In this document: positions 24,614-37,064 of the stretch, piece by piece | Layout: each line of letters starts with the position of its first letter | How positions within the stretch are numbered: the stretch's first letter is position 1 | Assembly: GCA_002495645.1 (NCBI GenBank) | Contig: DAGF01000091.1 | Span: 1-49,476, forward strand | Direction: 5' to 3' | Source: Euryarchaeota archaeon UBA549 | GTDB taxonomy: Archaea; Thermoplasmatota; Poseidoniia; Poseidoniales; Poseidoniaceae | DNA: 49,476 bases | The notes under the pieces: model-generated | What the model saw: only the letters and a program-made list of their open reading frames with translations | Told to the model about the DNA's origin: nothing | Database searches by the model: none | Translations under genes and position numbers: made by a program

Positions 24614-25360
24614 ATGGCCGTCGACCGAATGCAGTGGGGGGCCGAGGCGTGGCAGTACGCTGACCTTTACATGCCCGATGACCCCTCACCGTTCCAAAAA
24701 GACGAGGGCATCCCCTGCATCATGCTCATTCACGGTGGGTTTTGGAAGCAGCAGTACACGCTTGAGTTGATGCAACCCATCGCTGAAGACTTGGCGGAAG
24801 CCGGTGTGGCTGCTTGGAACATCGAATTCAAGCGGTGGGCACCGGGTGATGAAGGCGTTTGGATGGACACCCTTTCTGATGTTCTCAGAGCGTGGGGTCA
24901 ACTCGCCCTCCTTCCCGGCATCGACATCGCCCGCTCCATGGTGATGGGACACTCGGCGGGGGGCCAACTTGCGTTGTTGATGAGCGCGAAGGCCGAGCGA
25001 AGACCTTGGTTGGCCATTGCTCAAGCCCCCTTATCGGACCTCATTGGTGCTGACCACGCCCGCCTATCGGATGAGGGCGATGCCGTACGGCGCTGGATTG
25101 GTTGTGCACCCGAAGCCAACGAAACGCTCTGGCGGCAACTCAATCCTGTCGACCACCCACCGACCACGAGCGTGTTGCTGTTCCACGGCGAAGAGGACGA
25201 AGATGTGCCCGTTGAACAGTCCGAAACATATGCGAGGGTGATGAAGGCCAAGGGCGCTGACGTGCAGAAAGTTTGGCTTCCCGGCAATCACTACGACATC
25301 ATCGATGTGGCCTCCGACGATTGGCTGGTGCAACTCAACACCATCCTCGACTGGTTGTGA
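24614..25360 (+). CDS. alpha/beta hydrolase (esterase / arylformamidase-like)
   Basis: Oxyanion motif HGGFW. Nucleophile elbow GHSAGGQLAL. Later acidic (EEDEDVP) and His (GNHYD) candidates could complete the triad. 248 aa. Confidence 0.8.
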   Translation: MAVDRMQWGAEAWQYADLYMPDDPSPFQKDEGIPCIMLIHGGFWKQQYTLELMQPIAEDLAEAGVAAWNIEFKRWAPGDEGVWMDTLSDVLRAWGQLALLPGIDIARSMVMGHSAGGQLALLMSAKAERRPWLAIAQAPLSDLIGADHARLSDEGDAVRRWIGCAPEANETLWRQLNPVDHPPTTSVLLFHGEEDEDVPVEQSETYARVMKAKGADVQKVWLPGNHYDIIDVASDDWLVQLNTILDWL

Positions 25361-25441: not shown

Positions 25442-26257
25442 ATGGACCTCCTCGGCAACGACTACCCGTTTGTTTCAACCGCCCTTGAAGGCAAGCACGC
25501 CTTTGTCTGCGGTGCGAGCCAAGGTATCGGTGAAGCCACTGCAAAAATGCTCGCAAAAGCCGGAGCTGACGTGACGGTCTGTGCACGAAACGGAGCGGCG
25601 CTGACGGCACTTTGCGAAGAATTGGGGCGCATCGGTTCCGGTCGCCACCAAGCTTTGATGCTCGATTTGGAAGAAACGGACAGCATCGATTCGGCCTTTG
25701 CATCAGCCGTTGAAACGTTGGGTCCGGTTCACATTCTCATCAACAACGCAGGCGGACCTCCCGGCGGACCGCTGCTGAACAACGAAGTGTCTGACTTTGA
25801 GGCCCCGTTCCGACGGCACCTCCACGCCGCCCACACCTTGGTCAAAGCCGCATCACCAGCCATGGAATCCGAAGGCTACGGCCGTATCGTGCAAATCATT
25901 TCCACCTCGGTCAAGGAACCCATTCCCAACATCGGTCTTTCAAACACCCTTCGGGGAGCCATGGCCTCGTGGGCGAAATCCATGTCCAACGAACTCGCCC
26001 CCTGCATCACCATCAACAACGTTCTTCCTGGATTCACCGACACCGAACGACTCGGTAATTTGTCGGCCTCCATCCAAGAACGCACGGGGAAGTCCGCTCA
26101 GGCGGTTCGTGAAGGCTGGTTGAACCAGGTGCCCATTGGCCGACTCATCGACCCCCTCGAGACGGCCAGTGCCATCACCTACCTCTGCCTCCCTGCTTCA
26201 GGCGGCATTCGCGGCGTGAGTTTGGCCGTGGACGGCGGACGACTCCGCTCAATTTGA
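25442..26257 (+). CDS. short-chain dehydrogenase/reductase family protein (atypical active-site region)
   Basis: Rossmann motif VCGASQGIGEATAKMLAKAGADV, then NNAGG. The region aligned to YxxxK reads GLSNTLRGAMASWAKSM. PGFTDT follows. Confidence 0.8.
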   Translation: MDLLGNDYPFVSTALEGKHAFVCGASQGIGEATAKMLAKAGADVTVCARNGAALTALCEELGRIGSGRHQALMLDLEETDSIDSAFASAVETLGPVHILINNAGGPPGGPLLNNEVSDFEAPFRRHLHAAHTLVKAASPAMESEGYGRIVQIISTSVKEPIPNIGLSNTLRGAMASWAKSMSNELAPCITINNVLPGFTDTERLGNLSASIQERTGKSAQAVREGWLNQVPIGRLIDPLETASAITYLCLPASGGIRGVSLAVDGGRLRSI

Positions 26258-26266
26258 GGTGGCCGC

Positions 26267-27115
26267 ATGGATGCAGAAGTCTCTCCAGAAATGGCAGCCC
26301 AAGTGCTCGGGATGTTGACCGACGGCGGGTCCATGGACCACATCAATACTTCACTTGCACTCCATCTCATCCCGCTCGCACAGGAAGTCAAAGACCAGGA
26401 ATTGGTGGAACAACTCTTGGAACACGCCAGCAAGGTGGCCAAGAACGATGAAGAACGTGGATGGGCCAAATTTGAGGCACTCAAGGTGATGGAAGCGAGT
26501 TTGGAGAGTTTTCTTCGGCTGGCCGAAGAAGCCGAGCACATCGAGGACGCAAAAGGCTTGACGGCGGCGGTCAATCACTACGTCGCACTGCTCTACATGG
26601 CTGAAGGGAAACTCGACGAAGCACGAGCCACCGCGCAACACGCTCTGCGCCTACGCCATGTCATCGAAGACAAACAGGGGCTCTCCTACGGCATGGCCTT
26701 GCTCATGGCCGTCGCCAAGCGACAGCACGACGAAGAGACCGCCATTGCCGTTGGCACCGAACGCTTGGAGTTGCTCATGACGCTCAAGGATGAGGAGGGG
26801 CAGATGGAAGTTCTCGCTGATTTGGCCCACTGCCAAGCGACCATCGGCGAGTTCACCACCGCACAAGACCTGTTTGAACAATCGCTGGAGCGAGCCAAGG
26901 GTCTTGGAAGCCTCTCAGGTCAACTGGTCGCACGGTGGGGCCTTGCTGATTTGGCTGAAATCAGAGAAGACTACCAAACTGCCATGCTGGTCCTCTCCGA
27001 CGCCCTTCACGAATTCATCGCACTCGATGTCCCAGCACCCGCACAACTTCGCCAGCGCATCAGCGATTTAACCGATATCAAAGGCCAGCCGCAGCCAGAC
27101 AATGGCGAAGCCTAG
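26267..27115 (+). CDS. hypothetical all-helical (TPR-like) protein
   Basis: 282 aa. ATG lies 9 nt after the SDR stop. Ala/Leu/Glu-rich helical-hairpin periodicity (e.g. ALLYMAEGKLDEARATAQHALRL). No catalytic motif recognised. Confidence 0.5.
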   Translation: MDAEVSPEMAAQVLGMLTDGGSMDHINTSLALHLIPLAQEVKDQELVEQLLEHASKVAKNDEERGWAKFEALKVMEASLESFLRLAEEAEHIEDAKGLTAAVNHYVALLYMAEGKLDEARATAQHALRLRHVIEDKQGLSYGMALLMAVAKRQHDEETAIAVGTERLELLMTLKDEEGQMEVLADLAHCQATIGEFTTAQDLFEQSLERAKGLGSLSGQLVARWGLADLAEIREDYQTAMLVLSDALHEFIALDVPAPAQLRQRISDLTDIKGQPQPDNGEA

Positions 27116-27167: not shown

Positions 27168-28418
27168 ATGGAGCATGATATCTTCTTCTCCATCTCCCAA
27201 ACGCCCGACGAAGACGGGCATATTCCAACCGAAGCCACGATGTTGAGAAATTATTTCCAACAACTGGCGTGTGCTGACCGCTTGGGCTTTGGCGTTGGCT
27301 GGATTGCTCAAGCCCATCTTTCCACAGAGACCCAGAAATCCAACCAGCGGCCTGTCGTGCCGCACTGGAAGGGTGAAGTCGGCCTTTGCACCGACTTCCC
27401 ACAACTTGCCTTGGAGTCCTTTCGGCGAACCAGCAACATCGAGATCGGCAGTGCCGTCGTTTCTATTCTCGCTTCAGGTGGCCCCATCGCACAGGCCGAA
27501 CGCATGGCGAACGTCTTGAGCTTGCACGGCCTTGACGAAAACGAACAACGATGCCTCCACGTCGGTTTTTCTGCCGGTCGCTTCGAGTTCATGGCGCGCC
27601 CGTACGGCGTCGTGCCCCGAAACGCCATCGAGGAAGCGGCGTGGCCCGCTTTGCGAGGTCAAATCTTCATGGAAGCTGCCGAAATTTTCCTCCGTTTGTT
27701 GCGAGGTGACGTCATCAATTCCACCATGATTCGCCCCACCGTCCTCACCCGAGCCAACTTCAGAAGCGACGAAGACTGGGAGGCCGTCCAGGACGCTGCT
27801 GTTGAATTTGAGGCGCTTGATGGTCGACCGGAAGAGATCAAGATCCCGTCAAGGTACGTGTTTGAAGACCTCAAAATCATCCCTTCGGACTTCCGTCGTT
27901 CCCTGTTGAAACTGGTCGCTGGCACGCACGACCCTCGGGCACAGACCTTCGTCAACACCATCCTCCCTGTCAAGGTGTTCAACCTCTCCATCACCTCGCC
28001 CGAGGTGATTGATGCAACCCACGAGCGCATGCGAGAGGTCTACCACACCGATGGTGGGGCGTGGAAAAGAAGCGATATGCCTCGAACCAGTTTTGTCTTC
28101 TTGAACGCAGAGGACGGCCTTTCGCCCGAGGAACAAAGTGCTGCTGCACACATCGAAGCAGACCGGGCACTGAGCGCCTATTGGAACGCCTTGGAAGGTA
28201 CCATCGACCCCGACAAAGTCTCGAAGGCGGCCAACAATGCGCTGATTGGAAACGTTGAGGAGGTGGCCAAACAGATGGTGGGGCGATTCCATCCCGAAGA
28301 CCGCATCATGGCGTGGTTTGATTTCTTCAACCACGACAGCGACCGAGTGTGTCGAAACATGACGGCGTACATGGAACAGGTCGTGCCTCGTGTAGAAGCC
28401 ATGTTGAGGGAGGCATGA
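27168..28418 (+). CDS. luciferase-like (LLM class) flavin-dependent monooxygenase/oxidoreductase
   Basis: N-terminal LLM pattern FFSISQTPDEDGH...ADRLGFGVGWIAQAHL with a TIM-barrel-like layout, about 416 aa. The track start 27162 is GTG; the ATG is at 27168 (MEHDIFF). Confidence 0.7.
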   Translation: MEHDIFFSISQTPDEDGHIPTEATMLRNYFQQLACADRLGFGVGWIAQAHLSTETQKSNQRPVVPHWKGEVGLCTDFPQLALESFRRTSNIEIGSAVVSILASGGPIAQAERMANVLSLHGLDENEQRCLHVGFSAGRFEFMARPYGVVPRNAIEEAAWPALRGQIFMEAAEIFLRLLRGDVINSTMIRPTVLTRANFRSDEDWEAVQDAAVEFEALDGRPEEIKIPSRYVFEDLKIIPSDFRRSLLKLVAGTHDPRAQTFVNTILPVKVFNLSITSPEVIDATHERMREVYHTDGGAWKRSDMPRTSFVFLNAEDGLSPEEQSAAAHIEADRALSAYWNALEGTIDPDKVSKAANNALIGNVEEVAKQMVGRFHPEDRIMAWFDFFNHDSDRVCRNMTAYMEQVVPRVEAMLREA

Positions 28419-29539
28419 AGATGGGCATTCATCACGATACCTTCTCTGCGGTCCAGCCTGGCAAACCGGGTTCAGCGATGTACCCAACCTCCCCACTCGG
28501 CGAAAAGGTGGAAGGCATCCCAACAGGACGGGACGTGGATTGGGAACCACTGGTGGATTACCGCCGCAACGGCGTGTCCGAAACAACGATTCACGGCGCT
28601 GTGGCGTGGGCTCACGGAGACGAAGTCATCCATTCCTTCGGAGGAAACGTCCTCTGCTACGGCCGCTCGATGATGAAACCCTTCATGCTCAAAGCCTTCA
28701 CAGAAGAGTTGGAGGATTGCTCGTGGGAGCAGAAAGCCATCGCTGTGGCCTCGCACAACGGGGATACCGAACACGTGGCGGCCGCCCAATCTCTGCTGAG
28801 CGAATCCGAGTGGCCATTGATGCTCACGCCGCTGGATGTCCCGTTGATCCAGTTCGGACGTCAGGTCCGCCGGCCGCGACGGTGGTTCCACACCTGCTCG
28901 GGTGAACACGCAGCGATTTTGCGAGGCTGCCGGATGAAAGGATGGAACCGTGCTGGCTACACCCTGCCAACCCACGAAGTCTTCCACGCCTACATGGAAC
29001 AGTTGCGAACCTACCTCGGCCCGGAGTGGGAACCGCTCCGCATCGCCAAGGACGGGTGCGGCTTGCCCACGGTCTCAAACACCGTTTCTGAGTTGGCTCA
29101 AATCTATGCTGGTTTGGTCCGCGACAAGGACGACGACTGGATTTGGGAGGCCATGGTCCGCCATCCTGACCTCGTGGGTGGCTTCAATCGTCTCGATTCC
29201 ACCGTACTCAAAGCCGGCGAGGGACGCGTCATCGCCAAAGAAGGCGCTGATGGATTGATCGGCATGGCCATTGAGCATCCCGACTACCCGAAGGGCCTCG
29301 GCATCGTGGTGAAAATCGCCCACGGATGGAATTCACAAGCAACCTGGTATGTAACTCGGGCCCTGCTGGGTGTCCTCGGCATCAATTTGCGAAACCCCTA
29401 CCCTCTTCACCGTCAGAAGGCCTTCATTGTTCCTGGTATCGTACCAGAACACTACCTTGATGTCCTTGAAACGGTTCCAACATGGGACGAATGGGACCCC
29501 GACCAAGACCGATGGCACTTCGATCACGAGGTGAGTTGA
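28415..29539 (+). CDS. asparaginase II family (PF06089-like) protein
   Basis: Motifs RSMMKPFMLKA, ASHNGDTEHV, CSGEHAAIL, KDGCGLPT, IAKEGADGL. The ATG at 28415 overlaps the LLM stop (ATGA). GAGGGAGG lies upstream at 28406..28413. Confidence 0.7.
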   Translation: MKMGIHHDTFSAVQPGKPGSAMYPTSPLGEKVEGIPTGRDVDWEPLVDYRRNGVSETTIHGAVAWAHGDEVIHSFGGNVLCYGRSMMKPFMLKAFTEELEDCSWEQKAIAVASHNGDTEHVAAAQSLLSESEWPLMLTPLDVPLIQFGRQVRRPRRWFHTCSGEHAAILRGCRMKGWNRAGYTLPTHEVFHAYMEQLRTYLGPEWEPLRIAKDGCGLPTVSNTVSELAQIYAGLVRDKDDDWIWEAMVRHPDLVGGFNRLDSTVLKAGEGRVIAKEGADGLIGMAIEHPDYPKGLGIVVKIAHGWNSQATWYVTRALLGVLGINLRNPYPLHRQKAFIVPGIVPEHYLDVLETVPTWDEWDPDQDRWHFDHEVS

Positions 29540-30987
29540 TGGAGCCGATTTTGAATTACATCAACGGCGAATTTCTTCCCTCAACATCAGGACGAACGAT
29601 GGAAACGGTCAACCCTGCCAACGGTCAACCCATCACCACGCTCCCACGTTCTTCCGCCGATGATGTGGAATTGGCCACGGCAGCCGCCCATGAGGCAACA
29701 CCATCGTGGTCGGCCACCACCATGGAAGAACGCATCACGTGGCTTCATCGAATTGCTGATGCCTTGGAGGAAGAGGCCGAAACGATCGCTCAACTTGAGA
29801 GCATGGACACGGGAAAACCGATTTCCCTTGCACGAAGGGTGGACGCCGCCCGTTCTGTATCCAATTTCCGATTTTTCGCAGATTTTGGAAAGAGCCACAC
29901 CGAGCCAACCTTTGCTGACCACGGTGCTGTCAACCATGTCCACCGCTCCCCTATTGGATGTGTGGGCCTCATCACGCCATGGAATCTTCCGCTCTACCTG
30001 CTCACGTGGAAGGTCGCACCCGCCTTGTTGATGGGCAACACCATCGTGGCTAAACCTTCGGAATTGACCCCAATGACGGCCAATCACCTGGCAAAAATCC
30101 TGACCAGCATCAACTTCCCGAAAGGTGTGTTCAACCTTGTCCACGGCTTGGGCCCTGAAGTTGGTCAGGCCATTGTTGAGCATCCAGAAATTCGTGGTAT
30201 TTCGTTCACCGGTGGAACGGCGACCGGCAAAATCGTCGCCGCCACCGCCGCACCGATGTTCAAGAAACTCTCCTTGGAGTTGGGAGGCAAAAACGCCACC
30301 ATCGTCCTCGACGATGCACCACTCGAAGACGTGATGGACGGCATCGTTCGAGCGTCGTTTACCAATTCCGGCCAAGTCTGCTTATGCGGCTCTCGTGTTC
30401 TGGTCGACGCCTCCATCTACGACCGATTCAAGGCCATGTTTGTTGAAGCAGTCAACACCATTCGCGTGGGCGACCCAACCTTGGAAGCTACCGTCATGGG
30501 TTCCGTGATCTCCAAAGACCACCAAACCAAAGTTGAGTCCTACATCGAACTGGGACGCCAAGAAGGAGGCGTGGTGCTGACGGGTGGAACAGCGGCCGAA
30601 AGCCCGGTGGACGACGTACCATCCGAAGGTGCGTTTTTGCGACCAACCGTCATCGAAGGACTCAGTTACACCGCTCGTACCGCAACCGAGGAAATCTTTG
30701 GCCCCGTCGTAACTCTTCATTCCTTTAACTCCGAGCAAGAGGCCATTGACATGGCCAACGCCACCCAGTACGGTTTGGCGGGCTCGGTGTGGACCGCTGA
30801 CACCGAACGTGGGCACGCCTTTGCTCAACGCATGGACACCGGTATTGTGTGGGTCAACACCTGGTTGAACCGGGATCTGAGAACGCCCTTTGGTGGTGTC
30901 AAACAATCGGGCGTTGGACGGGAAGGCGGCACATGGTCGCTCAACTTCTTTTCCGAATTGACCAACATCTGCGTCCAGCAACCTTGA
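29539..30987 (+). CDS. NAD-dependent aldehyde dehydrogenase, 2-hydroxy/2-aminomuconic semialdehyde dehydrogenase-like
   Basis: MEPILNYINGEF..., VSNFRFFADF (characteristic of the muconic semialdehyde DH clade), ITPWNLPL, catalytic Glu in LELGGKN, catalytic Cys in GQVCLCGSR. The ATG at 29539 shares one nt with the upstream TGA (TGATG). Confidence 0.85.
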   Translation: MEPILNYINGEFLPSTSGRTMETVNPANGQPITTLPRSSADDVELATAAAHEATPSWSATTMEERITWLHRIADALEEEAETIAQLESMDTGKPISLARRVDAARSVSNFRFFADFGKSHTEPTFADHGAVNHVHRSPIGCVGLITPWNLPLYLLTWKVAPALLMGNTIVAKPSELTPMTANHLAKILTSINFPKGVFNLVHGLGPEVGQAIVEHPEIRGISFTGGTATGKIVAATAAPMFKKLSLELGGKNATIVLDDAPLEDVMDGIVRASFTNSGQVCLCGSRVLVDASIYDRFKAMFVEAVNTIRVGDPTLEATVMGSVISKDHQTKVESYIELGRQEGGVVLTGGTAAESPVDDVPSEGAFLRPTVIEGLSYTARTATEEIFGPVVTLHSFNSEQEAIDMANATQYGLAGSVWTADTERGHAFAQRMDTGIVWVNTWLNRDLRTPFGGVKQSGVGREGGTWSLNFFSELTNICVQQP

Positions 30988-31025: not shown

Positions 31026-31754
31026 ATGGACGATGAAACGCTCCCACTCTTCGTCCTGCCCATGGTGCTTTTTCCGGGGGAGTTGCAGGAATTACGTGTC
31101 TTTGAACCACGCTATCGCCAAATGTTGGACACATGCATTCTGGACGAGCGACCGTTTGGCCTCGTCATGAACGACCCCTTTGAACCGGCCAACGGATGGG
31201 ACGGCCCACGAAGACATGGTTGCGAAGCCATCATCCTCAACCACGAAACGAGGGGAGTGAACCACTTCATCACCATCACCGGCGGTCGACGATTTTTCAT
31301 CGAGGAGGTCATTGAGCCGGCACTGCCACCGTTTTCTGACCCCAGCATGGCCGCTCTTGTCGAGGAGGGTTTGGCGCCCGATGTGGATACGCTGCTGCAA
31401 CATCTCCCAGAAGACGCGACCCATAGCAAGTTGTACATCTCGGCGAAGGTGACGTATTTGGAGGAGGTCGGCGAACTGGGCGAAGAGGACCAAGCCTACC
31501 TTCGCAGCCTCACCAGCAACATCGTCCACCGTGCCGGACGAGGCATGAACGTCGACGCCACCGTCTTGGACGGGTGGGTTGAATCCATTTGTGAAGAGCA
31601 AATCAACGAGCGGAAAGAGTCGATTTACAACATCGCAGCCCTGTGTCTCAACGACCTTGAAGCACGCCAACAACTGCTTGCCTGCTCCAGTGCTGCCGAG
31701 GCTTTGCACGAACTCCAGACCCATGTTTTCGGCTTCGTTGACGAGGCAGAATGA
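31026..31754 (+). CDS. stand-alone LON N-terminal (substrate-binding, PUA-like) domain protein
   Basis: [37 protein letters not shown] is the canonical start of the LON_substr_bdg domain. ATG at 31026 is preceded by AAGGGAGG. No AAA+ or protease module is present. Confidence 0.75.
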
Positions 31755-31797
31755 ACGAAGGCGACGAATTGAAAACACGACGGGCGGTGGAAGGTCC

Positions 31798-32619
31798 ATG
31801 TCCGTCTACAGCGAAGCACGGAAGGTGACCACCCATACGCTGCAAGAAATGAAGCGTGCAGGCGAGAAAATCACCATGCTCACCGCCTACGACTACTCGC
31901 TGGCTCGCCTTGTCGACCAAGCAGGTGTTGATGTCATTCTCGTCGGTGATTCCGCATCGAACGTTATGGCTGGTCAAGTCACCACGGTACCGATGACCCT
32001 CGACCACATGATCTACCATGCCCAGTGTGTTGAGCGAGCCGTTGACCGCGCCCTGTTGGTGGTTGACATGCCGTTTGGCACCTACCAAGGCAATTCTCGT
32101 CAAGCCCTTGATTCCGCCATTCGCATCATGAAGGAGTCAAGCGGACACGCTGTGAAATTGGAAGGTGGAGCCGAAATCGTGGAGTCCGTGGAGCGTATCC
32201 TAACCGCTGGCATCCCCGTCATGGGTCATTTGGGCTTGACACCTCAGTCCATCTACAAGTTTGGGACCTACTCTGTACGAGCCAAGGAAGAGGAAGAAGC
32301 TGAGAAGTTGATCGCCGACGCCAAAGTGCTCGAAGCCGCTGGCTGCTTTGCCATCGTGCTTGAAAAAATTCCTCGGGACCTCGCCAAGCGTGTTTCGGCC
32401 GCATTGAGCATTCCCACCATCGGCATCGGTGCTGGACCTGATGTGGACGGTCAAGTGCTCGTCCTTCACGACCTCTTGGGCATCACGATGGATTTCTCAC
32501 CACGCTTCCTTCGCCGATACCTGAACCTCGCCGAAGAAATTGACGGGGCCATCAAGGGCTATTGCGCTGATGTGCGTTCAGGGGATTTCCCCAACGACGA
32601 GGAATCGTACACCTCGTGA
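31798..32619 (+). CDS. panB: 3-methyl-2-oxobutanoate hydroxymethyltransferase (ketopantoate hydroxymethyltransferase)
   Basis: [69 protein letters not shown] at 31798 within track ORF 31579..32619. Confidence 0.92.
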
Positions 32620-33129
32620 TCACATCATCAGGCTGTGATAGAGCAACGAGCCGCCTAAGGCACCGATGTTGACGCCCATGGTGTGCCAAATGGCCAATCG
32701 GAACGGAGGAAGATGAAATCGCCACCACGAAGTGCTGACCCAAATCCAAAGCACGACCGTGAGGTACCCGCCGCACACAAAACCACCCATCCCGGTGGAC
32801 CAAACAAACATCAACGGGAGGCCGAGGGCTGCGATACCACCGAGGTAATCGAGCCACATCGATTGAGGATGAGGCGTAAGCCAGCGGTGGAGCAGGGGGG
32901 AGAAGAGCATCATGATCAGCAAACCACCTTGGGGTGGATTGGGCAGACCGTAGGTCAATTGCGGTGAAATGAAGGCTTGCCATAACGCACCTGCTGCCAT
33001 CCCGAACAGCGTGGGAAAGACCACATTCACCCACGTTTCCGCCCATGTGGCCGACATCGGTTGTTGAATCTGAACGCTTGTCTGAGCCGATTCCTCCGGA
33101 GCCGTATCCTCCAGAGTTGGTTCTCCCAT
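32620..33129 (-). CDS. hypothetical membrane protein (about 4 TM)
   Basis: 169 aa with hydrophobic segments (VVFPTLFGMAAGALW, GLLIMMLFSPLL, LGGIAALGLPLMFVW, FVCGGYLTVVLWIWV). Preferred over the Arg-rich overlapping ORF 32552..33256. Its stop abuts the panB stop (TGATCA). Confidence 0.55.
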   Translation of the reverse strand: MGEPTLEDTAPEESAQTSVQIQQPMSATWAETWVNVVFPTLFGMAAGALWQAFISPQLTYGLPNPPQGGLLIMMLFSPLLHRWLTPHPQSMWLDYLGGIAALGLPLMFVWSTGMGGFVCGGYLTVVLWIWVSTSWWRFHLPPFRLAIWHTMGVNIGALGGSLLYHSLMM

Positions 33130-33224
33130 GGCCCTTCCACAGCGACGGGTTGTTTATGGCTTCGTGTTTGAAACGCAACAGGTGATGCCGATGATGAATT
33201 AAACCTCGGCGCAATCCGTTGAGC

Positions 33225-34127
33225 ATGGGCAAGGGCCAGATTGTAGCCGGATGCATAGCTCCGCATCCACCGCATCTTGTTTACGCAGAAAACCCGCCCC
33301 AAAACGAACCCGTTGCGGAAGGTGGCTGGGAACAACTGCGTTGGGGATACGAACGACTCCGAGCCTCACTTTCCGAGCACGATTACGACGCCATCGTCCT
33401 TCTTTCCCCACACTGGCAAACCTATGTTGGCACCCATTTCCTTGGCCTCCCCCATTTTGAGGGCCTATCGGTTGACCCCATCTTCCCCAACCTCTTCCGC
33501 TACCACTACGACATGAACGTCGATGTTGAATTGGCGCAAGCGATTCACGACGAGGCAGCCAAAGCGGGCCTTCCGGTGAAGATGATGGAAAATCCAGACT
33601 TCCGAGTCGATTACGGCACCATCACCACCGGCCACTTGTTCAACCCTGACTGGGACAAGCCGCTCGTGGTCATTTCAAGCAACCGTTCAACGGCGTACTA
33701 TTCGGTTGAAGTGATGCAGGAAATCATGATCGAACTGGGCAGAGTCACCCGAAAAGCCATTGAGGCCAGTGGAAAAAGAGTCGTTGTCCTCGCCAGCAAT
33801 TCACTCTCACACCGACACTTCACGACCGAATCCGAAGTGCCCGAAGACATGAGCAAAGAGCACATCACCAGCCACGCCATGCACCTGTGGGACATGCGAA
33901 TGATCGATTACATGCGAAGCGGTCAAGCTCAACGCATCCTCGATGAGATGCCGGAATTCACCGAACAAGCCATCGCCGAGAGCGACGGGGGCGGGCTCTC
34001 TTGGTTGCTGTCCACCCTCGATGTGCCCGATTACCCCGCCATTCTCCACGGCTACGGGACCATTATTGGCACCGGTAACGCTGTGGTTGAATGGCCGTGT
34101 TATGCACACGAGGTGAACGACGAATGA
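33225..34127 (+). CDS. class III (LigB-family) extradiol ring-cleavage dioxygenase, catalytic beta subunit, 2-aminophenol 1,6-dioxygenase AmnB-like
   Basis: MGKGQIVAGCIAPHPPHLVYAENPPQNEP..GGWEQLRWGYERL, VDPIFPNLFRY, FRVDYGTITTGHL, SNSLSHRHF, PEDMSKEH, GYGTIIGTGNAVVEW. The track start 33219 is TTG; the ATG is at 33225. Confidence 0.8.
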   Translation: MGKGQIVAGCIAPHPPHLVYAENPPQNEPVAEGGWEQLRWGYERLRASLSEHDYDAIVLLSPHWQTYVGTHFLGLPHFEGLSVDPIFPNLFRYHYDMNVDVELAQAIHDEAAKAGLPVKMMENPDFRVDYGTITTGHLFNPDWDKPLVVISSNRSTAYYSVEVMQEIMIELGRVTRKAIEASGKRVVVLASNSLSHRHFTTESEVPEDMSKEHITSHAMHLWDMRMIDYMRSGQAQRILDEMPEFTEQAIAESDGGGLSWLLSTLDVPDYPAILHGYGTIIGTGNAVVEWPCYAHEVNDE

Positions 34128-35566
34128 GCCAAGGCGAAATCGTGGCGTCCTACGTCGTCCCCGTTCACCCCCACACGGTGTTGGCGCCCGACCAAAATCC
34201 AGGGTGGCGCCGCTTACGTGATGCTTTTGACGGGGCCGCTCAAACCATTCAAGACCTCGACGCAGATTTGCTCATCATCTACTCCACCACTTGGCCCTCC
34301 ATTATTGGCCATCAGATTCAGGCCGACCCGAACCCCGAATGGGTCATGGTCGACCACGATTTTCACGACCTCGGGTCCATCCCTTACTCCTTCAACATCG
34401 ATGCAGACTTCGCCCATGCCTGGAACGAAGCCAACAAACAACGAGGCCTGCAGAGCCGATGTGTGAACTACAAAGGATTCCCCATCGACGTCGGTTCGGT
34501 CGTGGCCTTGACCCTGCTGAACCCGGACAACAGCATTCCCGCCGTCATCGTCTCGTCAAACATGTACGCCAACCGAAGCGAGACCACGGTGCTGGCCAAA
34601 TCCTGCTTGGACGTCATCAAGGCCCAAGGTCGTCGTGCCGTCGCCATCACCGCCATGTCGCTGTCCAACCGAATGTTCACTGACTTTATCCAGCCTGAGG
34701 AGGATAAGATCCACTCGCTCAAGGACGATGAGTGGAACAGGAAGATTCTGGAATTCCTTGAACAAGGTCGCCTCGAGGATGTGGGTCAACTCTCACGAAC
34801 CATTCACCGACAAATCCGAGTGCAAAAGGTGGTGGCGTTCAAACCGATGTGGTGGCTTTCCGCCATGAACGGGAATCGAAACGATTTGACCGGACGCATC
34901 CTCGCTTACGAAGCGATTCACGGCGCCGGTGGTGCCGTGGTTCACATCGACCCAACATCGACCGGCGTGGGCGACAAAGAATACGACGAGGACGACGTGG
35001 AATACTTCCACGGCGAACGCGGTGTGTTGGAAGGTGCAGAGGAGAGCCAGACGGACGCAATCCAAAACACCGACGCTGGCGTCGATGCAACAGATGATGC
35101 AAGGGCAAGCGACAGCGGCCCTGCACTTTGGGACCCGACGGAGGCCAAAGGTTCGGTGAACACCGATGCTGCGCCAAAACCAGTGGGCGCTTATCCTCAT
35201 GCCCGCAAGGTTGGCGACATGCTCTTCCTCTCCGGCGTGGGGCCTCGTCAGCCTGGTACCAACGCCATTCCCGGAGGGCCCATCCACGATGAAAACGGGG
35301 AGCCGCTCGAGTATGACATCAAAGCCCAAACACATGCGGTTGTCAACAACGTGAAGCGAATTGTCGAGGAAGCAGGCGCTACCATGGACCAAGTGGTTGA
35401 TGTCACCACCTTCCTCGTGGACATGAAACGAGACTTTGCTGGCTACAATGAGGTGTGGGCTGAAACGCTTGGAAAGGTCGGACCCACGCGAACAACCCTC
35501 GCTATTGACGCTCTACCAACCCCCATTGCTGTCGAGATGAAGGTCATCGTCCACATGCCGGAATAA
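34124..35566 (+). CDS. fusion protein: LigB-family alpha-like subunit (AmnA-like), acidic linker, and RidA/YjgF/L-PSP deaminase domain
   Basis: The ATG at 34124 overlaps the upstream TGA (ATGA). N-domain at 34124..34954: LLIIYSTTWPS, VNYKGFPIDVGS, KDDEWNRKILEFLEQG. Asp/Glu-rich linker at 34955..35155. RidA domain at 35156..35563: APKPVGAYPHARKVGDMLFLSGVGP...TTFLVDMKDF..YNEVW...PTRTTLAIDALP..IAVEMKVIV. Confidence 0.8.
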   Translation: MSQGEIVASYVVPVHPHTVLAPDQNPGWRRLRDAFDGAAQTIQDLDADLLIIYSTTWPSIIGHQIQADPNPEWVMVDHDFHDLGSIPYSFNIDADFAHAWNEANKQRGLQSRCVNYKGFPIDVGSVVALTLLNPDNSIPAVIVSSNMYANRSETTVLAKSCLDVIKAQGRRAVAITAMSLSNRMFTDFIQPEEDKIHSLKDDEWNRKILEFLEQGRLEDVGQLSRTIHRQIRVQKVVAFKPMWWLSAMNGNRNDLTGRILAYEAIHGAGGAVVHIDPTSTGVGDKEYDEDDVEYFHGERGVLEGAEESQTDAIQNTDAGVDATDDARASDSGPALWDPTEAKGSVNTDAAPKPVGAYPHARKVGDMLFLSGVGPRQPGTNAIPGGPIHDENGEPLEYDIKAQTHAVVNNVKRIVEEAGATMDQVVDVTTFLVDMKRDFAGYNEVWAETLGKVGPTRTTLAIDALPTPIAVEMKVIVHMPE

Positions 35567-35672: not shown

Positions 35673-37064
35673 ATGGTTGTTGAAAAAACAGTTGAACTGG
35701 CCCGCTCCATCGGACTCAAGACGTTGGTGATTCTTTCGCTGTCCTCCATGTTGGGTTCAGGGATTTTCCTCCTCCCTGCATTTGCACAGGAAGTGGTGGG
35801 CCCGGGAATGTGGTTTGCCTTCCTCCTTGCCGGCAGCGTGGTCATCGCCAGCGCGTTCTCAAAGGCTGAATTGGCCAGTGCCATGCCTCAGTCCGGCGGA
35901 TTCTATGTTTACGCCGAACGCACCTATGGCCACCTCGTCGGCACCATCAGTGGCCTTGGCCTCTTTGCATCCTTCATGTTGAAATCTGCGTTCGCCTTGG
36001 TTGGTTTTGCAGCCTACATGAAGGTCATCACCGACCACTACGGTATCGAAGACATCAATTCAAACGCCATCGCCATGGTCTTGCTCGCCTTTATTCTCCT
36101 CGTAAACTTGACAGGTGTCAAGGCCATCAAGAAAGTTCAGATTCCCATCGTCACCGGTGCGATGGCCATGGTCGTCGTGCTGTGCATCATGGCCTTGGCC
36201 TCGGGCGACATGGATTTCGGCCGGCCCGTTGAGGACTTCAATCCAGTGAGCATCCAAATGGGAACCGCAGCAGCACTCGTGTTCGTAGCATACTCGGGAG
36301 CCATCAAGGTCGGCGCCATCGGTGGCGAGGTGATGGACCCTGAAACGAACCTCCCTCGAGGCATGATTCAATCCTTGGTCATCGCCACCTTGCTCTACGC
36401 CACCGTCGCCTACATCATGGTCGCTACGATGGACCCGGGATGGCACATGGTTGACGGCCACGCCGTTGAGAACCCAATTACGGTCTTCGCCCAATCGGTT
36501 GCTGGAACAGCCGTTGTGTTGATCGCCTCCTTGGTGGCCATCATCGCCATGGCATCCATGGCACTTGCTGGTGTTCTCTCCTCATCGCGCTTCATTTATG
36601 CCATGGCCAAAGACGGTGTTCTTCCCGCTTCACTTGGAGAACTCAACGAGCGCTACAAGACGCCGCACTGGCCCATTTTACTCACGGGGCTGCTCATGGC
36701 TGTCTCAATCTATTCCTTTGACGTTCACGTCATTGCAGAGCTCGCCTCTGGATTCATCCTCATGGTCTTCATCGTCCTCAACCTCACGGTGGTCGTATTG
36801 CGCCGAGCCGGTCCAAAACACGAGTGGAATCCACCATACCGTTCGCCATTGTACCCGCTACCCCAGATTTACGGCACAATCGCCGGGATGTTCATGCTCG
36901 TCTTGATGGGCAAGAAGGCCCTCTTCGGTGGTGCAGGAGCGATCGTTCTCGGCCTCATTGCATGGTATGCATACGGGCGGAAGAATGTTCAGCCAAGAGA
37001 TGGGCCAACCCCGCTCAGCACCTTCCTTGGCCGAGACAGCACCGTGAGTGAGGAAAGCGAGTAA
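35673..37064 (+). CDS. amino acid permease (APC superfamily)
   Basis: 463 aa, about 12 TM. N-terminal LKTLVILSLSSMLGSGIFLLPA is an APC-type signature. Confidence 0.85.
   Translation: MVVEKTVELARSIGLKTLVILSLSSMLGSGIFLLPAFAQEVVGPGMWFAFLLAGSVVIASAFSKAELASAMPQSGGFYVYAERTYGHLVGTISGLGLFASFMLKSAFALVGFAAYMKVITDHYGIEDINSNAIAMVLLAFILLVNLTGVKAIKKVQIPIVTGAMAMVVVLCIMALASGDMDFGRPVEDFNPVSIQMGTAAALVFVAYSGAIKVGAIGGEVMDPETNLPRGMIQSLVIATLLYATVAYIMVATMDPGWHMVDGHAVENPITVFAQSVAGTAVVLIASLVAIIAMASMALAGVLSSSRFIYAMAKDGVLPASLGELNERYKTPHWPILLTGLLMAVSIYSFDVHVIAELASGFILMVFIVLNLTVVVLRRAGPKHEWNPPYRSPLYPLPQIYGTIAGMFMLVLMGKKALFGGAGAIVLGLIAWYAYGRKNVQPRDGPTPLSTFLGRDSTVSEESE

Follow-up and report, generated by a model that had tools for sequence, protein, structure and literature searches.

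What substrate could occupy a flavin monooxygenase-like protein, an asparaginase homologue and an aldehyde dehydrogenase (ALDH) whose genes are packed end to end in a marine archaeon? The question is raised by three consecutive genes, here named A, B and C, in a 49,476-nucleotide stretch of DNA (the window: contig DAGF01000091.1 of assembly GCA_002495645.1) from Euryarchaeota archaeon UBA549, a member of the order Poseidoniales of Marine Group II. In the surface ocean, Marine Group II archaea rank among the most abundant heterotrophs; to our knowledge none has been cultured. The initial annotation of the locus, made from the DNA sequence, had suggested a new route for an amide- or amine-bearing aromatic compound or an amino-acid-derived substrate. 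The comparative analysis described here indicates that the triplet very probably belongs to a tryptophan or kynurenine-type route that passes through an aminophenol. We further propose, with moderate confidence, a specific mechanism in which aspartate and 2-aminophenol are formed from kynurenine by A and B, with no kynureninase taking part.

The lack of synteny that would have refuted the initial annotation was not seen: the triplet is a conserved unit. A comparison of 16 Poseidoniales loci, drawn from three families of the order, revealed A, B and C contiguous and in the same order in 15 of them, both main families included, and the same succession was found in bacteria of the Thermoanaerobaculia. 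Gene A was detected in 117 of the 121 Poseidoniales genomes of at least 85% completeness. Two of the remaining four also lack B and carry the tryptophan 2,3-dioxygenase (TDO) gene and the dioxygenase pair described below, and the other two have B, so that A may simply be unassembled there; the co-loss comparison inside the order is weak, every component being near-core. A short-chain dehydrogenase/reductase (SDR) gene lies directly upstream of A in 15 of the 16 loci and belongs to the conserved archaeal unit too; it is also present in another archaeal locus (L043), and none was found in the 80 bacterial loci analysed. At one locus of the third family (L019:7773-10269, genome G027), the SDR gene and A are followed by a subtilase-like gene in place of B and C.

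Downstream of C, the window encodes two LigB-type extradiol dioxygenase subunits resembling AmnB and AmnA (LigB1 and LigB2), the second of which is fused to a RidA-family deaminase domain. These are the dioxygenase genes that had been noted 2.2 kb beyond the triplet, and they begin at 33219. The LigB1 and LigB2/RidA genes are conserved neighbours in Poseidoniales and bacterial loci alike. In the window they are separated from C by two unrelated-looking genes, encoding a stand-alone Lon N-domain protein (Lon-N) and panB, and then by a 0.6-kb gap. This is a local rearrangement, since the LigB pair follows C directly in some genera, as in locus L022, where the pair, a permease and panB come straight after C. 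An amino-acid permease gene adjoins the dioxygenase pair in four Poseidoniales loci (L021, L022, L027 and L028) and possibly encodes the substrate importer. The amn-type parts, namely the dioxygenase pair, the dehydrogenase and the RidA deaminase, thus lie within 8 kb in the window and are contiguous in L022 and in the Thermoanaerobaculia loci. The functional tie to AmnAB-like dioxygenases drawn in the initial annotation is borne out by the genomes in which the pair directly follows C, and by one lineage in which B is fused to a LigB subunit. No 4-oxalocrotonate decarboxylase, hydratase or aldolase was seen among the annotated neighbours, a genome-wide search not having been made.

The cassette is not confined to archaea. 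A pattern scan of species-representative genomes returned at least 587 stretches with relatives of A, and the 80 loci closest to a bacterial member of the family were analysed further; 49 of these have at least 8 kb of downstream sequence. The set comprises Oligoflexales-like Bdellovibrionota, other Bdellovibrionota and Myxococcota, and Thermoanaerobaculia and other Acidobacteriota. Gene B was found beside A in 69 of the 80 loci (45 of the 49 with long flanks). Among the latter 49, an ALDH gene was found in 22, LigB genes in 21, RidA in 21, a Cyclase gene of the kynurenine formamidase (KynB) type in 17 and TDO, within 10 kb, in seven. The Thermoanaerobaculia carry the array A-B-C-LigB1-LigB2/RidA, followed in about half of the complete arrays by a Cyclase gene, and their proteins are 53% (A), 65% (B), 51% (C) and 59% (LigB1) identical to those of the window. 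These identities are almost as high as those between Poseidoniales families and point to transfer of the whole cassette between domains. The A-B pair is regarded as an ancient module. Short gene overlaps are common in prokaryotes and are weak proof by themselves; what goes beyond chance here is the gene order, which is kept across two domains of life.

Through gene fusions, B and C are linked with the steps of the dioxygenase, the formamidase and the deaminase. A LigB-B fusion is represented by three protein clusters (P0274-P0276) from several contigs, B is fused to a Cyclase domain of the KynB type in L032 and L070, C is fused to RidA in L043, and LigB2 is fused to RidA in the window itself. 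The archaeal locus L043 brings most of these parts together, with TDO, SDR, A, the C-RidA fusion and Cyclase on one strand and LigB and LigB-B on the other. In L070 and in L032, which shares with L074 one contig of a Polyangiaceae metagenome-assembled genome, the B-Cyclase fusion comes after A with TDO alongside, and about ten Bdellovibrionota and Myxococcota loci, L032/L074 included, have A, B or B-Cyclase, and TDO.

A further locus, L033, has the order TDO-B-A. Around it (L033:1-11073) are genes for an AMP-binding enzyme, a pyridoxal phosphate (PLP) enzyme, a DUF1611 protein, an MR_MLE-type epimerase, an acyl-CoA dehydrogenase-like protein, an 88-aa protein, a GNAT protein, an MFS transporter and a second LLM (luciferase-like monooxygenase). 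This neighbourhood resembles a biosynthetic cluster, to which the module may contribute a building block, either 2-aminophenol or aspartate.

Tryptophan agrees with the amino-acid-derived substrate guessed at in the initial annotation, and it fits both the clustering and the co-occurrence of TDO. The gene occurs inside the cluster in three separate lineages, and it was found in 59 of 61 Poseidoniales genomes and in all 18 bacterial carriers of A tested, as against two of 14 control genomes, counts that come from few related lineages and are not independent. Kynureninase above the cut-off was detected in only one of the 61 Poseidoniales and one of the 18 bacterial carriers, the bacterial exception being a genome in which B does not adjoin A. 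A and B would fill a hole in the pathway, because TDO is near-universal in carriers while kynureninase is nearly absent. The single Poseidoniales case (G058:C29:6106-7323) is a bona fide kynureninase scoring 425 bits, and could be explained by transfer, by contamination or by the operation of both routes in that lineage.

In the genome of the window, which is 80% complete, TDO is present, and no kynureninase, KynB or amidohydrolase (PF04909) of the 2-amino-3-carboxymuconate semialdehyde decarboxylase (ACMSD) type was found. No candidate for kynurenine 3-monooxygenase (KMO) was found there either, the sole full-length FAD_binding_3 protein being a geranylgeranyl reductase. The canonical kynurenine pathway is therefore represented by its first enzyme, with the searches for KynB, KMO, kynureninase and ACMSD all negative. 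The search for 3-hydroxyanthranilate 3,4-dioxygenase (3-HAO; PF06052) supports no inference, as its control matched no genome.

Gene A belongs to a divergent family, and its annotation as luciferase-like fared differently by method. It has no Pfam or NCBIfam match at default thresholds; against PF00296 it scores 15.8 bits (cut-off 27.9, E 0.009) over residues 15-115 alone, and a sequence search of the PDB gave no match. An AlphaFold model built with 26 homologues (pLDDT 91.8, pTM 0.90) has the (beta/alpha)8 TIM barrel of the LLM type, and a Foldseek search with it returned the LLM fold at probability 1.0, with E values down to 6e-15 and identities of 11-16%. The matches include the entries 2i7g, 8cbb, 7bip, 1luc and 4uwm; by name they include a homodimeric luciferase, RslO1, LuxA, RutA and 3,6-diketocamphane monooxygenase (4uwm), a type II Baeyer-Villiger enzyme. 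The call that default sequence models do not support is thus upheld by the predicted fold, by a family profile that reaches luciferase alpha chains at E 5e-6, and by a homologue in L043, 48% identical to A, which passes PF00296 with 53.4 bits over its full length. Compared with the matched LLMs of 320-350 residues, A has an insertion of about 80 residues. An exhaustive search of 1.84 billion representative proteins yielded 314 clusters of the family, many of them fragments. From sequence and model, A belongs to a narrow and divergent family of the LLM fold.

Luciferase, RutA and 3,6-diketocamphane monooxygenase attack carbonyl carbons with a flavin peroxide. A gene for a flavin reductase (PF01613; G000 C51:8892-9308) is located elsewhere in the genome of the window, and A presumably depends on a separate flavin reductase. 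The search for fusions of A found no flavin reductase fusion and one protein only, P0127 of EukProt (Andalucia godoyi gene model ANDGO_01838; 1501 aa). This eukaryotic protein opens with a full-length A homologue (42% identity, 99% coverage), and GATase and ApbE (flavin transferase) domains come after it. The model may be a merger of genes; if real, it connects the family of A with the handling of flavin in a jakobid.

Gene B had been assigned to the asparaginase-II family, and the assignment holds: it matches PF06089 (E 2.5e-47), and its PDB sequence matches are the Class-3 (Rhizobium-type) asparaginases ReAIV and ReAV of Rhizobium etli, at a low score of about 61 bits. In the alignment to ReAV, B keeps the counterparts of Arg47, Ser48, Lys51, Ser80, Cys135, His139, Asp187, Cys189 and Lys263, and its motifs GRSMMKP, ASH and AKEGAD align. 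Both the Ser48-Lys51 and the Ser80-Lys263 tandems are thus present together with Arg47. Mutagenesis of ReAV has identified Arg47 as the residue that binds the alpha-carboxylate of asparagine, Ser48 as the nucleophile and Lys138 as a zinc ligand (PMC12292245). The zinc site formed by Cys135, Lys138 and Cys189 together with Cys249 is incomplete in B: both cysteine ligands are kept, Lys138 is replaced by Glu (CSGEH) and Cys249 by Asp. The CSGEH variant is common to Poseidoniales and Thermoanaerobaculia, and the Oligoflexales and Bdellovibrionota homologues of B still have the lysine; the Lys138-to-Glu change was accordingly rejected as a mark of all A-linked B proteins, being limited to the clade of Poseidoniales and Thermoanaerobaculia. 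With its nucleophile and base tandems and Arg47 intact, B resembles a beta-aspartyl hydrolase, and its genomic context favours a beta-aspartyl substrate other than free L-asparagine.

Gene C is an ALDH (PF00171, E 7e-164) that had been placed in the muconic-semialdehyde dehydrogenase clade on the strength of its NFRFFADF motif. That placement stands, on the ranking of PDB scores and the alignment of residues rather than on a tree. The seven best PDB sequences, 4u3w, 7bzv and 4i1w included, are all 2-aminomuconate-semialdehyde dehydrogenases (E 2e-141 to 8e-133, 451-476 bits). They are followed at 420-396 bits by an unnamed aldehyde dehydrogenase and two (carboxy)hydroxymuconate-semialdehyde dehydrogenases, and the first matches outside the muconic-semialdehyde family are betaine-aldehyde dehydrogenases at about 372 bits. 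The NFRFFADF motif aligns with NFRTFAD or NFRNFAD of the solved 2-aminomuconate-semialdehyde dehydrogenases. All five residues compared, Arg120, Asn169, Glu268, Cys302 and Arg464 in the numbering of 4i1w_A, are identical in C; we take Arg120 and Arg464 to be the arginines that bind the substrate carboxylate, and Cys302, Glu268 and Asn169 to be catalytic. Among NCBIfam models TIGR03216 ranks first with 546.6 bits, which is below its equivalog cut-off of 693.25; HpaE (535 bits) and BADH (478 bits) come after it. The best families are hydroxymuconic-semialdehyde types, both below their equivalog cut-offs.

A mechanism can be proposed that draws these direct observations together, namely the conserved order of the genes, the protein families and their folds, the residues of catalysis, the fusions and the co-occurrence of TDO without kynureninase. 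In kynurenine, an o-aminoaryl ketone, the part of the side chain that lies past the carbonyl is an aspartate skeleton. TDO would open the indole ring of tryptophan, leading to N-formylkynurenine and kynurenine. A, acting as a two-component flavin monooxygenase, would then attack the aryl ketone of kynurenine or N-formylkynurenine with its flavin peroxide and insert an oxygen atom in a Baeyer-Villiger reaction. This would yield the beta-aspartyl ester of 2-aminophenol, able to rearrange to N4-(2-hydroxyphenyl)asparagine, and B, as an asparaginase-type serine hydrolase, would cut the beta-aspartyl bond to release L-aspartate and 2-aminophenol. The AmnAB-like LigB pair would open 2-aminophenol to 2-aminomuconic semialdehyde, C would oxidise this to 2-aminomuconate, and the RidA domain on the second dioxygenase subunit would deaminate the product of C.

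The Baeyer-Villiger idea would explain why an asparaginase homologue, with its alpha-carboxylate-binding residue intact, serves as the hydrolase, and why the oxygenase comes from a family specialised in flavin-peroxide attack on carbonyls. It would also explain the company of the module: TDO and a formamidase on the one hand, a dioxygenase of the 2-aminophenol type, a 2-aminomuconic-semialdehyde dehydrogenase and a RidA deaminase on the other. The initial annotation had raised for A a possible hydroxylation that creates the ortho-amino or hydroxy phenol; a monooxygenase role is retained, and Baeyer-Villiger insertion followed by hydrolysis is considered more likely than hydroxylation of the ring.

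Several observations weigh against this proposal. The substrate and the chemistry of A and B are inferred, the Baeyer-Villiger step from chemical reasoning. TDO lies on another contig in the genome of the window, unlinked to the cassette, and is nearby in just the seven long-flank bacterial loci counted above, while the co-occurrence figures share the lack of independence already stated. Two fairly complete genomes, G028 and G130, have TDO and the LigB pair and yielded neither A nor B. The SDR has been given no step in the pathway, though it is kept with A in archaea. Cyclase (KynB, kynurenine formamidase) was found in none of the 61 Poseidoniales genomes, and the alpha/beta-hydrolase encoded upstream of the SDR is confined to one family; the formamidase gap might be bridged if A took N-formylkynurenine and another enzyme removed the formyl group, or by an unrecognised formamidase. 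Finally, Thermoanaerobaculia clusters, as in locus L100 (L100:7805-19090), have a gene of the CE4 polysaccharide-deacetylase family inserted between A and B and also contain two genes for FadL/TodX outer-membrane channels, and TDO is absent from the 21 kb of L100, so an exogenous aromatic amide could be the substrate there, or the substrate range could be other or broader in Thermoanaerobaculia. This last group of features, together with the infrequent linkage of TDO, favours an alternative in which another aromatic amide or aryl ketone yields the o-aminophenol throughout, for example an exogenous N-acylated or beta-aspartyl-conjugated aminophenol, the TDO link being secondary. We consider this unlikely overall: TDO accompanies A in nearly every carrier and seldom occurs in the controls, it sits within the cluster in separate lineages, and B is fused to a KynB-type domain. 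Moreover, without A and B the near-universal TDO of Poseidoniales has no known downstream enzyme.

The same route from tryptophan through an o-aminophenol to ring cleavage could also run by other chemistry, with A hydroxylating kynurenine and B cutting the side chain to give 3-hydroxyanthranilate, which the LigB pair would cleave and from which C would oxidise the (carboxy)muconic semialdehyde. LLM enzymes can hydroxylate, the genomic associations would be identical, and both KMO and kynureninase are missing. However, kynureninase performs a PLP-dependent C-C cleavage, whereas B keeps the amidase-type Ser-Lys apparatus and the alpha-carboxylate arginine, and the decarboxylase of the ACMSD type (PF04909) that was looked for in the genome of the window was not found; this version is judged improbable, somewhat more so than a different substrate. 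Far less credible is the view that the genes are unrelated neighbours in a compact genome, with B an ordinary asparaginase, C a general ALDH and A an unrelated flavin or F420 oxidoreductase. Short overlaps are indeed common in compact genomes, panB and Lon-N share the array, and A and C both fall under curated family cut-offs, but against this stand an order kept across archaea and bacteria, the B-LigB, B-Cyclase and C-RidA fusions, and the residues of C that are specific to muconic-semialdehyde dehydrogenases. Pyrimidine degradation of the Rut type, in which an LLM (RutA), an amidohydrolase, RidA, an alpha/beta-hydrolase and a reductase take part, was considered and dropped, as no pyrimidine link was seen and the links to TDO, KynB and AmnAB are specific. 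Conversion of kynurenine by Baeyer-Villiger oxygenation and beta-aspartyl hydrolysis thus remains the preferred account of the triplet.

The coordinates of the features are collected in the table. The same-strand array runs from the alpha/beta-hydrolase through SDR, the tetratricopeptide repeat (TPR) gene, A, B, C, Lon-N and panB, then across the gap to the LigB pair and the permease.

Features of the locus, with positions counted from the first letter of the window
Feature	Coordinates	Strand	Basis or remark
Alpha/beta-hydrolase (BD-FAE / Peptidase_S9 / Abhydrolase_3)	24614..25360	+	Pfam; first gene of array
Short-chain dehydrogenase/reductase (SDR)	25442..26257	+	Pfam, NCBIfam
TPR-repeat protein, between SDR and A	26267..27115	+	Pfam
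Gene A, 416 aa, divergent luciferase-like (LLM) TIM-barrel family	27168..28418	+	Predicted fold, family profile
GGAGG, Shine-Dalgarno-like	28409..28413	+	Read from sequence; 7 nt ahead of ATG 28421
Gene B, 372 aa (374 aa from 28415), Class-3 asparaginase homologue	28421..29539	+	PF06089
Gene C, 482 aa, NAD(P)-dependent aldehyde dehydrogenase, 2-amino/2-hydroxymuconate-semialdehyde type	29539..30987	+	PF00171
Lon N-domain protein, stand-alone	31026..31754	+	Pfam
panB	31759..32619	+	Pfam
Open frame, 234 aa, without Pfam match	32552..33256	-	
LigB-type extradiol dioxygenase subunit (AmnB-like), LigB1	33219..34127	+	Pfam
Second LigB-type subunit (AmnA-like) fused to RidA-family deaminase domain	34091..35566	+	Pfam, NCBIfam
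Amino-acid permease	35673..37064	+	Pfam

Gene A starts at ATG 27168 (alternative GTG 27162) and ends with TGA 28416-18. Gene B ends with TGA 29537-39 and C starts at ATG 29539, an overlap of 1 nt; C ends with TGA 30985-87. Two in-frame ATGs, 28415 and 28421, are candidate starts for B. The GGAGG at 28409-13 lies 7 nt ahead of the latter and just 1 nt ahead of the former, and the 7-nt spacing is also found ahead of ATG 31026, so B probably starts at ATG 28421, 2 nt past the stop of A, rather than at 28415. Both strings that had been taken as stop/start overlaps, ATGA at 28415-28418 and TGATG at 29537-29541, are present; the second is a genuine junction, and the first is doubtful as the true start of B on account of its Shine-Dalgarno spacing. 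A and B abut whichever start is used.

Some neighbours of the triplet are of more local distribution. Loci of the window's family (L024-L028) have the TPR gene, which is missing in the loci from the other two families (L013-L023), and its product is far less conserved than its neighbours (40-84% identity). Of 33 genomes belonging to the window's family, 32 yielded an orthologue of the alpha/beta-hydrolase, as against one of 26 in the other main family. As a general kynurenine formamidase this enzyme (24614-25360) is not supported, being limited to one family and having a carboxylesterase as its best PDB sequence match; it is regarded as an accessory gene and a weak candidate for a formamidase or esterase. 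Lon-N follows the ALDH gene after 38 nt and panB follows Lon-N after 4 nt, an arrangement limited to the window's family. The panB frame is open from TTG 31579, and its Pfam match starts near ATG 31759. The minus-strand frame of 234 aa at 32552-33256 spans the gap between panB and the first dioxygenase gene and might or might not be a gene.

If the proposal is true, a gap in the metabolism of Marine Group II would be closed, where the fate of kynurenine is unexplained given that nearly all members encode TDO and no kynureninase. Two large families now annotated as 'hypothetical' or wrongly as 'alkanesulfonate monooxygenase' or 'L-asparaginase II' would gain a function, and the enzymes of 2-aminophenol ring cleavage, the 'xenobiotic' amn enzymes known mainly from nitroarene degraders, would gain a natural substrate. 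Annotation pipelines that score tryptophan catabolism by kynureninase would need revision, and the trait would be near-core in Marine Group II archaea and present in several uncultured bacterial lineages. No description of this tryptophan route was found in the open-access literature searched. A and B have no described counterpart in the amn or kynurenine pathway and probably represent two new enzyme activities. There seems to us an even chance that A is the first Baeyer-Villiger monooxygenase of kynurenine or N-formylkynurenine and B the first asparaginase-fold hydrolase of a beta-aspartyl-aminophenol, and that together they open a third route for tryptophan, near-core in Marine Group II and carried by a cassette that has moved between domains.

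Comparison with known systems places the cassette between two pathways, its downstream half being homologous to the amn pathway and its upstream end matching the first step of kynurenine metabolism. The amn pathway (amnBACD of Pseudomonas sp. AP-3, and the cnb and nbz clusters of nitrobenzene and chloronitrobenzene degraders) shares with it the two-subunit LigB dioxygenase, the dehydrogenase and a RidA-family deaminase. In those bacteria 2-aminophenol arises from nitroarene reduction, whereas here its proposed source is tryptophan, by way of A and B, for which the amn clusters offer no counterpart; in the window, moreover, the deaminase is fused to a dioxygenase subunit and C falls under the NCBIfam equivalog cut-off. 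The canonical kynurenine pathway (TDO, KynB, KMO, kynureninase, 3-HAO, ACMSD, 2-aminomuconate-semialdehyde dehydrogenase and deaminase) shares the start at TDO and the end in a dehydrogenase and a RidA-type deaminase. Four of its steps would drop out if A and B acted as proposed, and aspartate would be formed instead of alanine.

At the level of single enzymes, B shares with ReAIV and ReAV (PDB 8cly and 7os3) the family, presumably the fold, both Ser-Lys tandems and Arg47; it differs from them in the residues at positions 138 (Glu) and 249 (Asp) and in adjoining A or being fused to pathway enzymes. The leaving group of ReAIV and ReAV is ammonia, and that proposed for B is 2-aminophenol. A shares the LLM TIM-barrel fold of LuxAB, RutA and 3,6-diketocamphane monooxygenase (4uwm), at an identity of just 11-16%. 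4-Hydroxyacetophenone monooxygenase and an aryl esterase convert an aryl ketone to an aryl ester and then to a phenol. This route follows the same logic as that proposed for A and B, a Baeyer-Villiger oxidation and then hydrolysis, but the monooxygenase there uses FAD, works as a single component and comes from an unrelated family, and the esterase has no relation to asparaginases.

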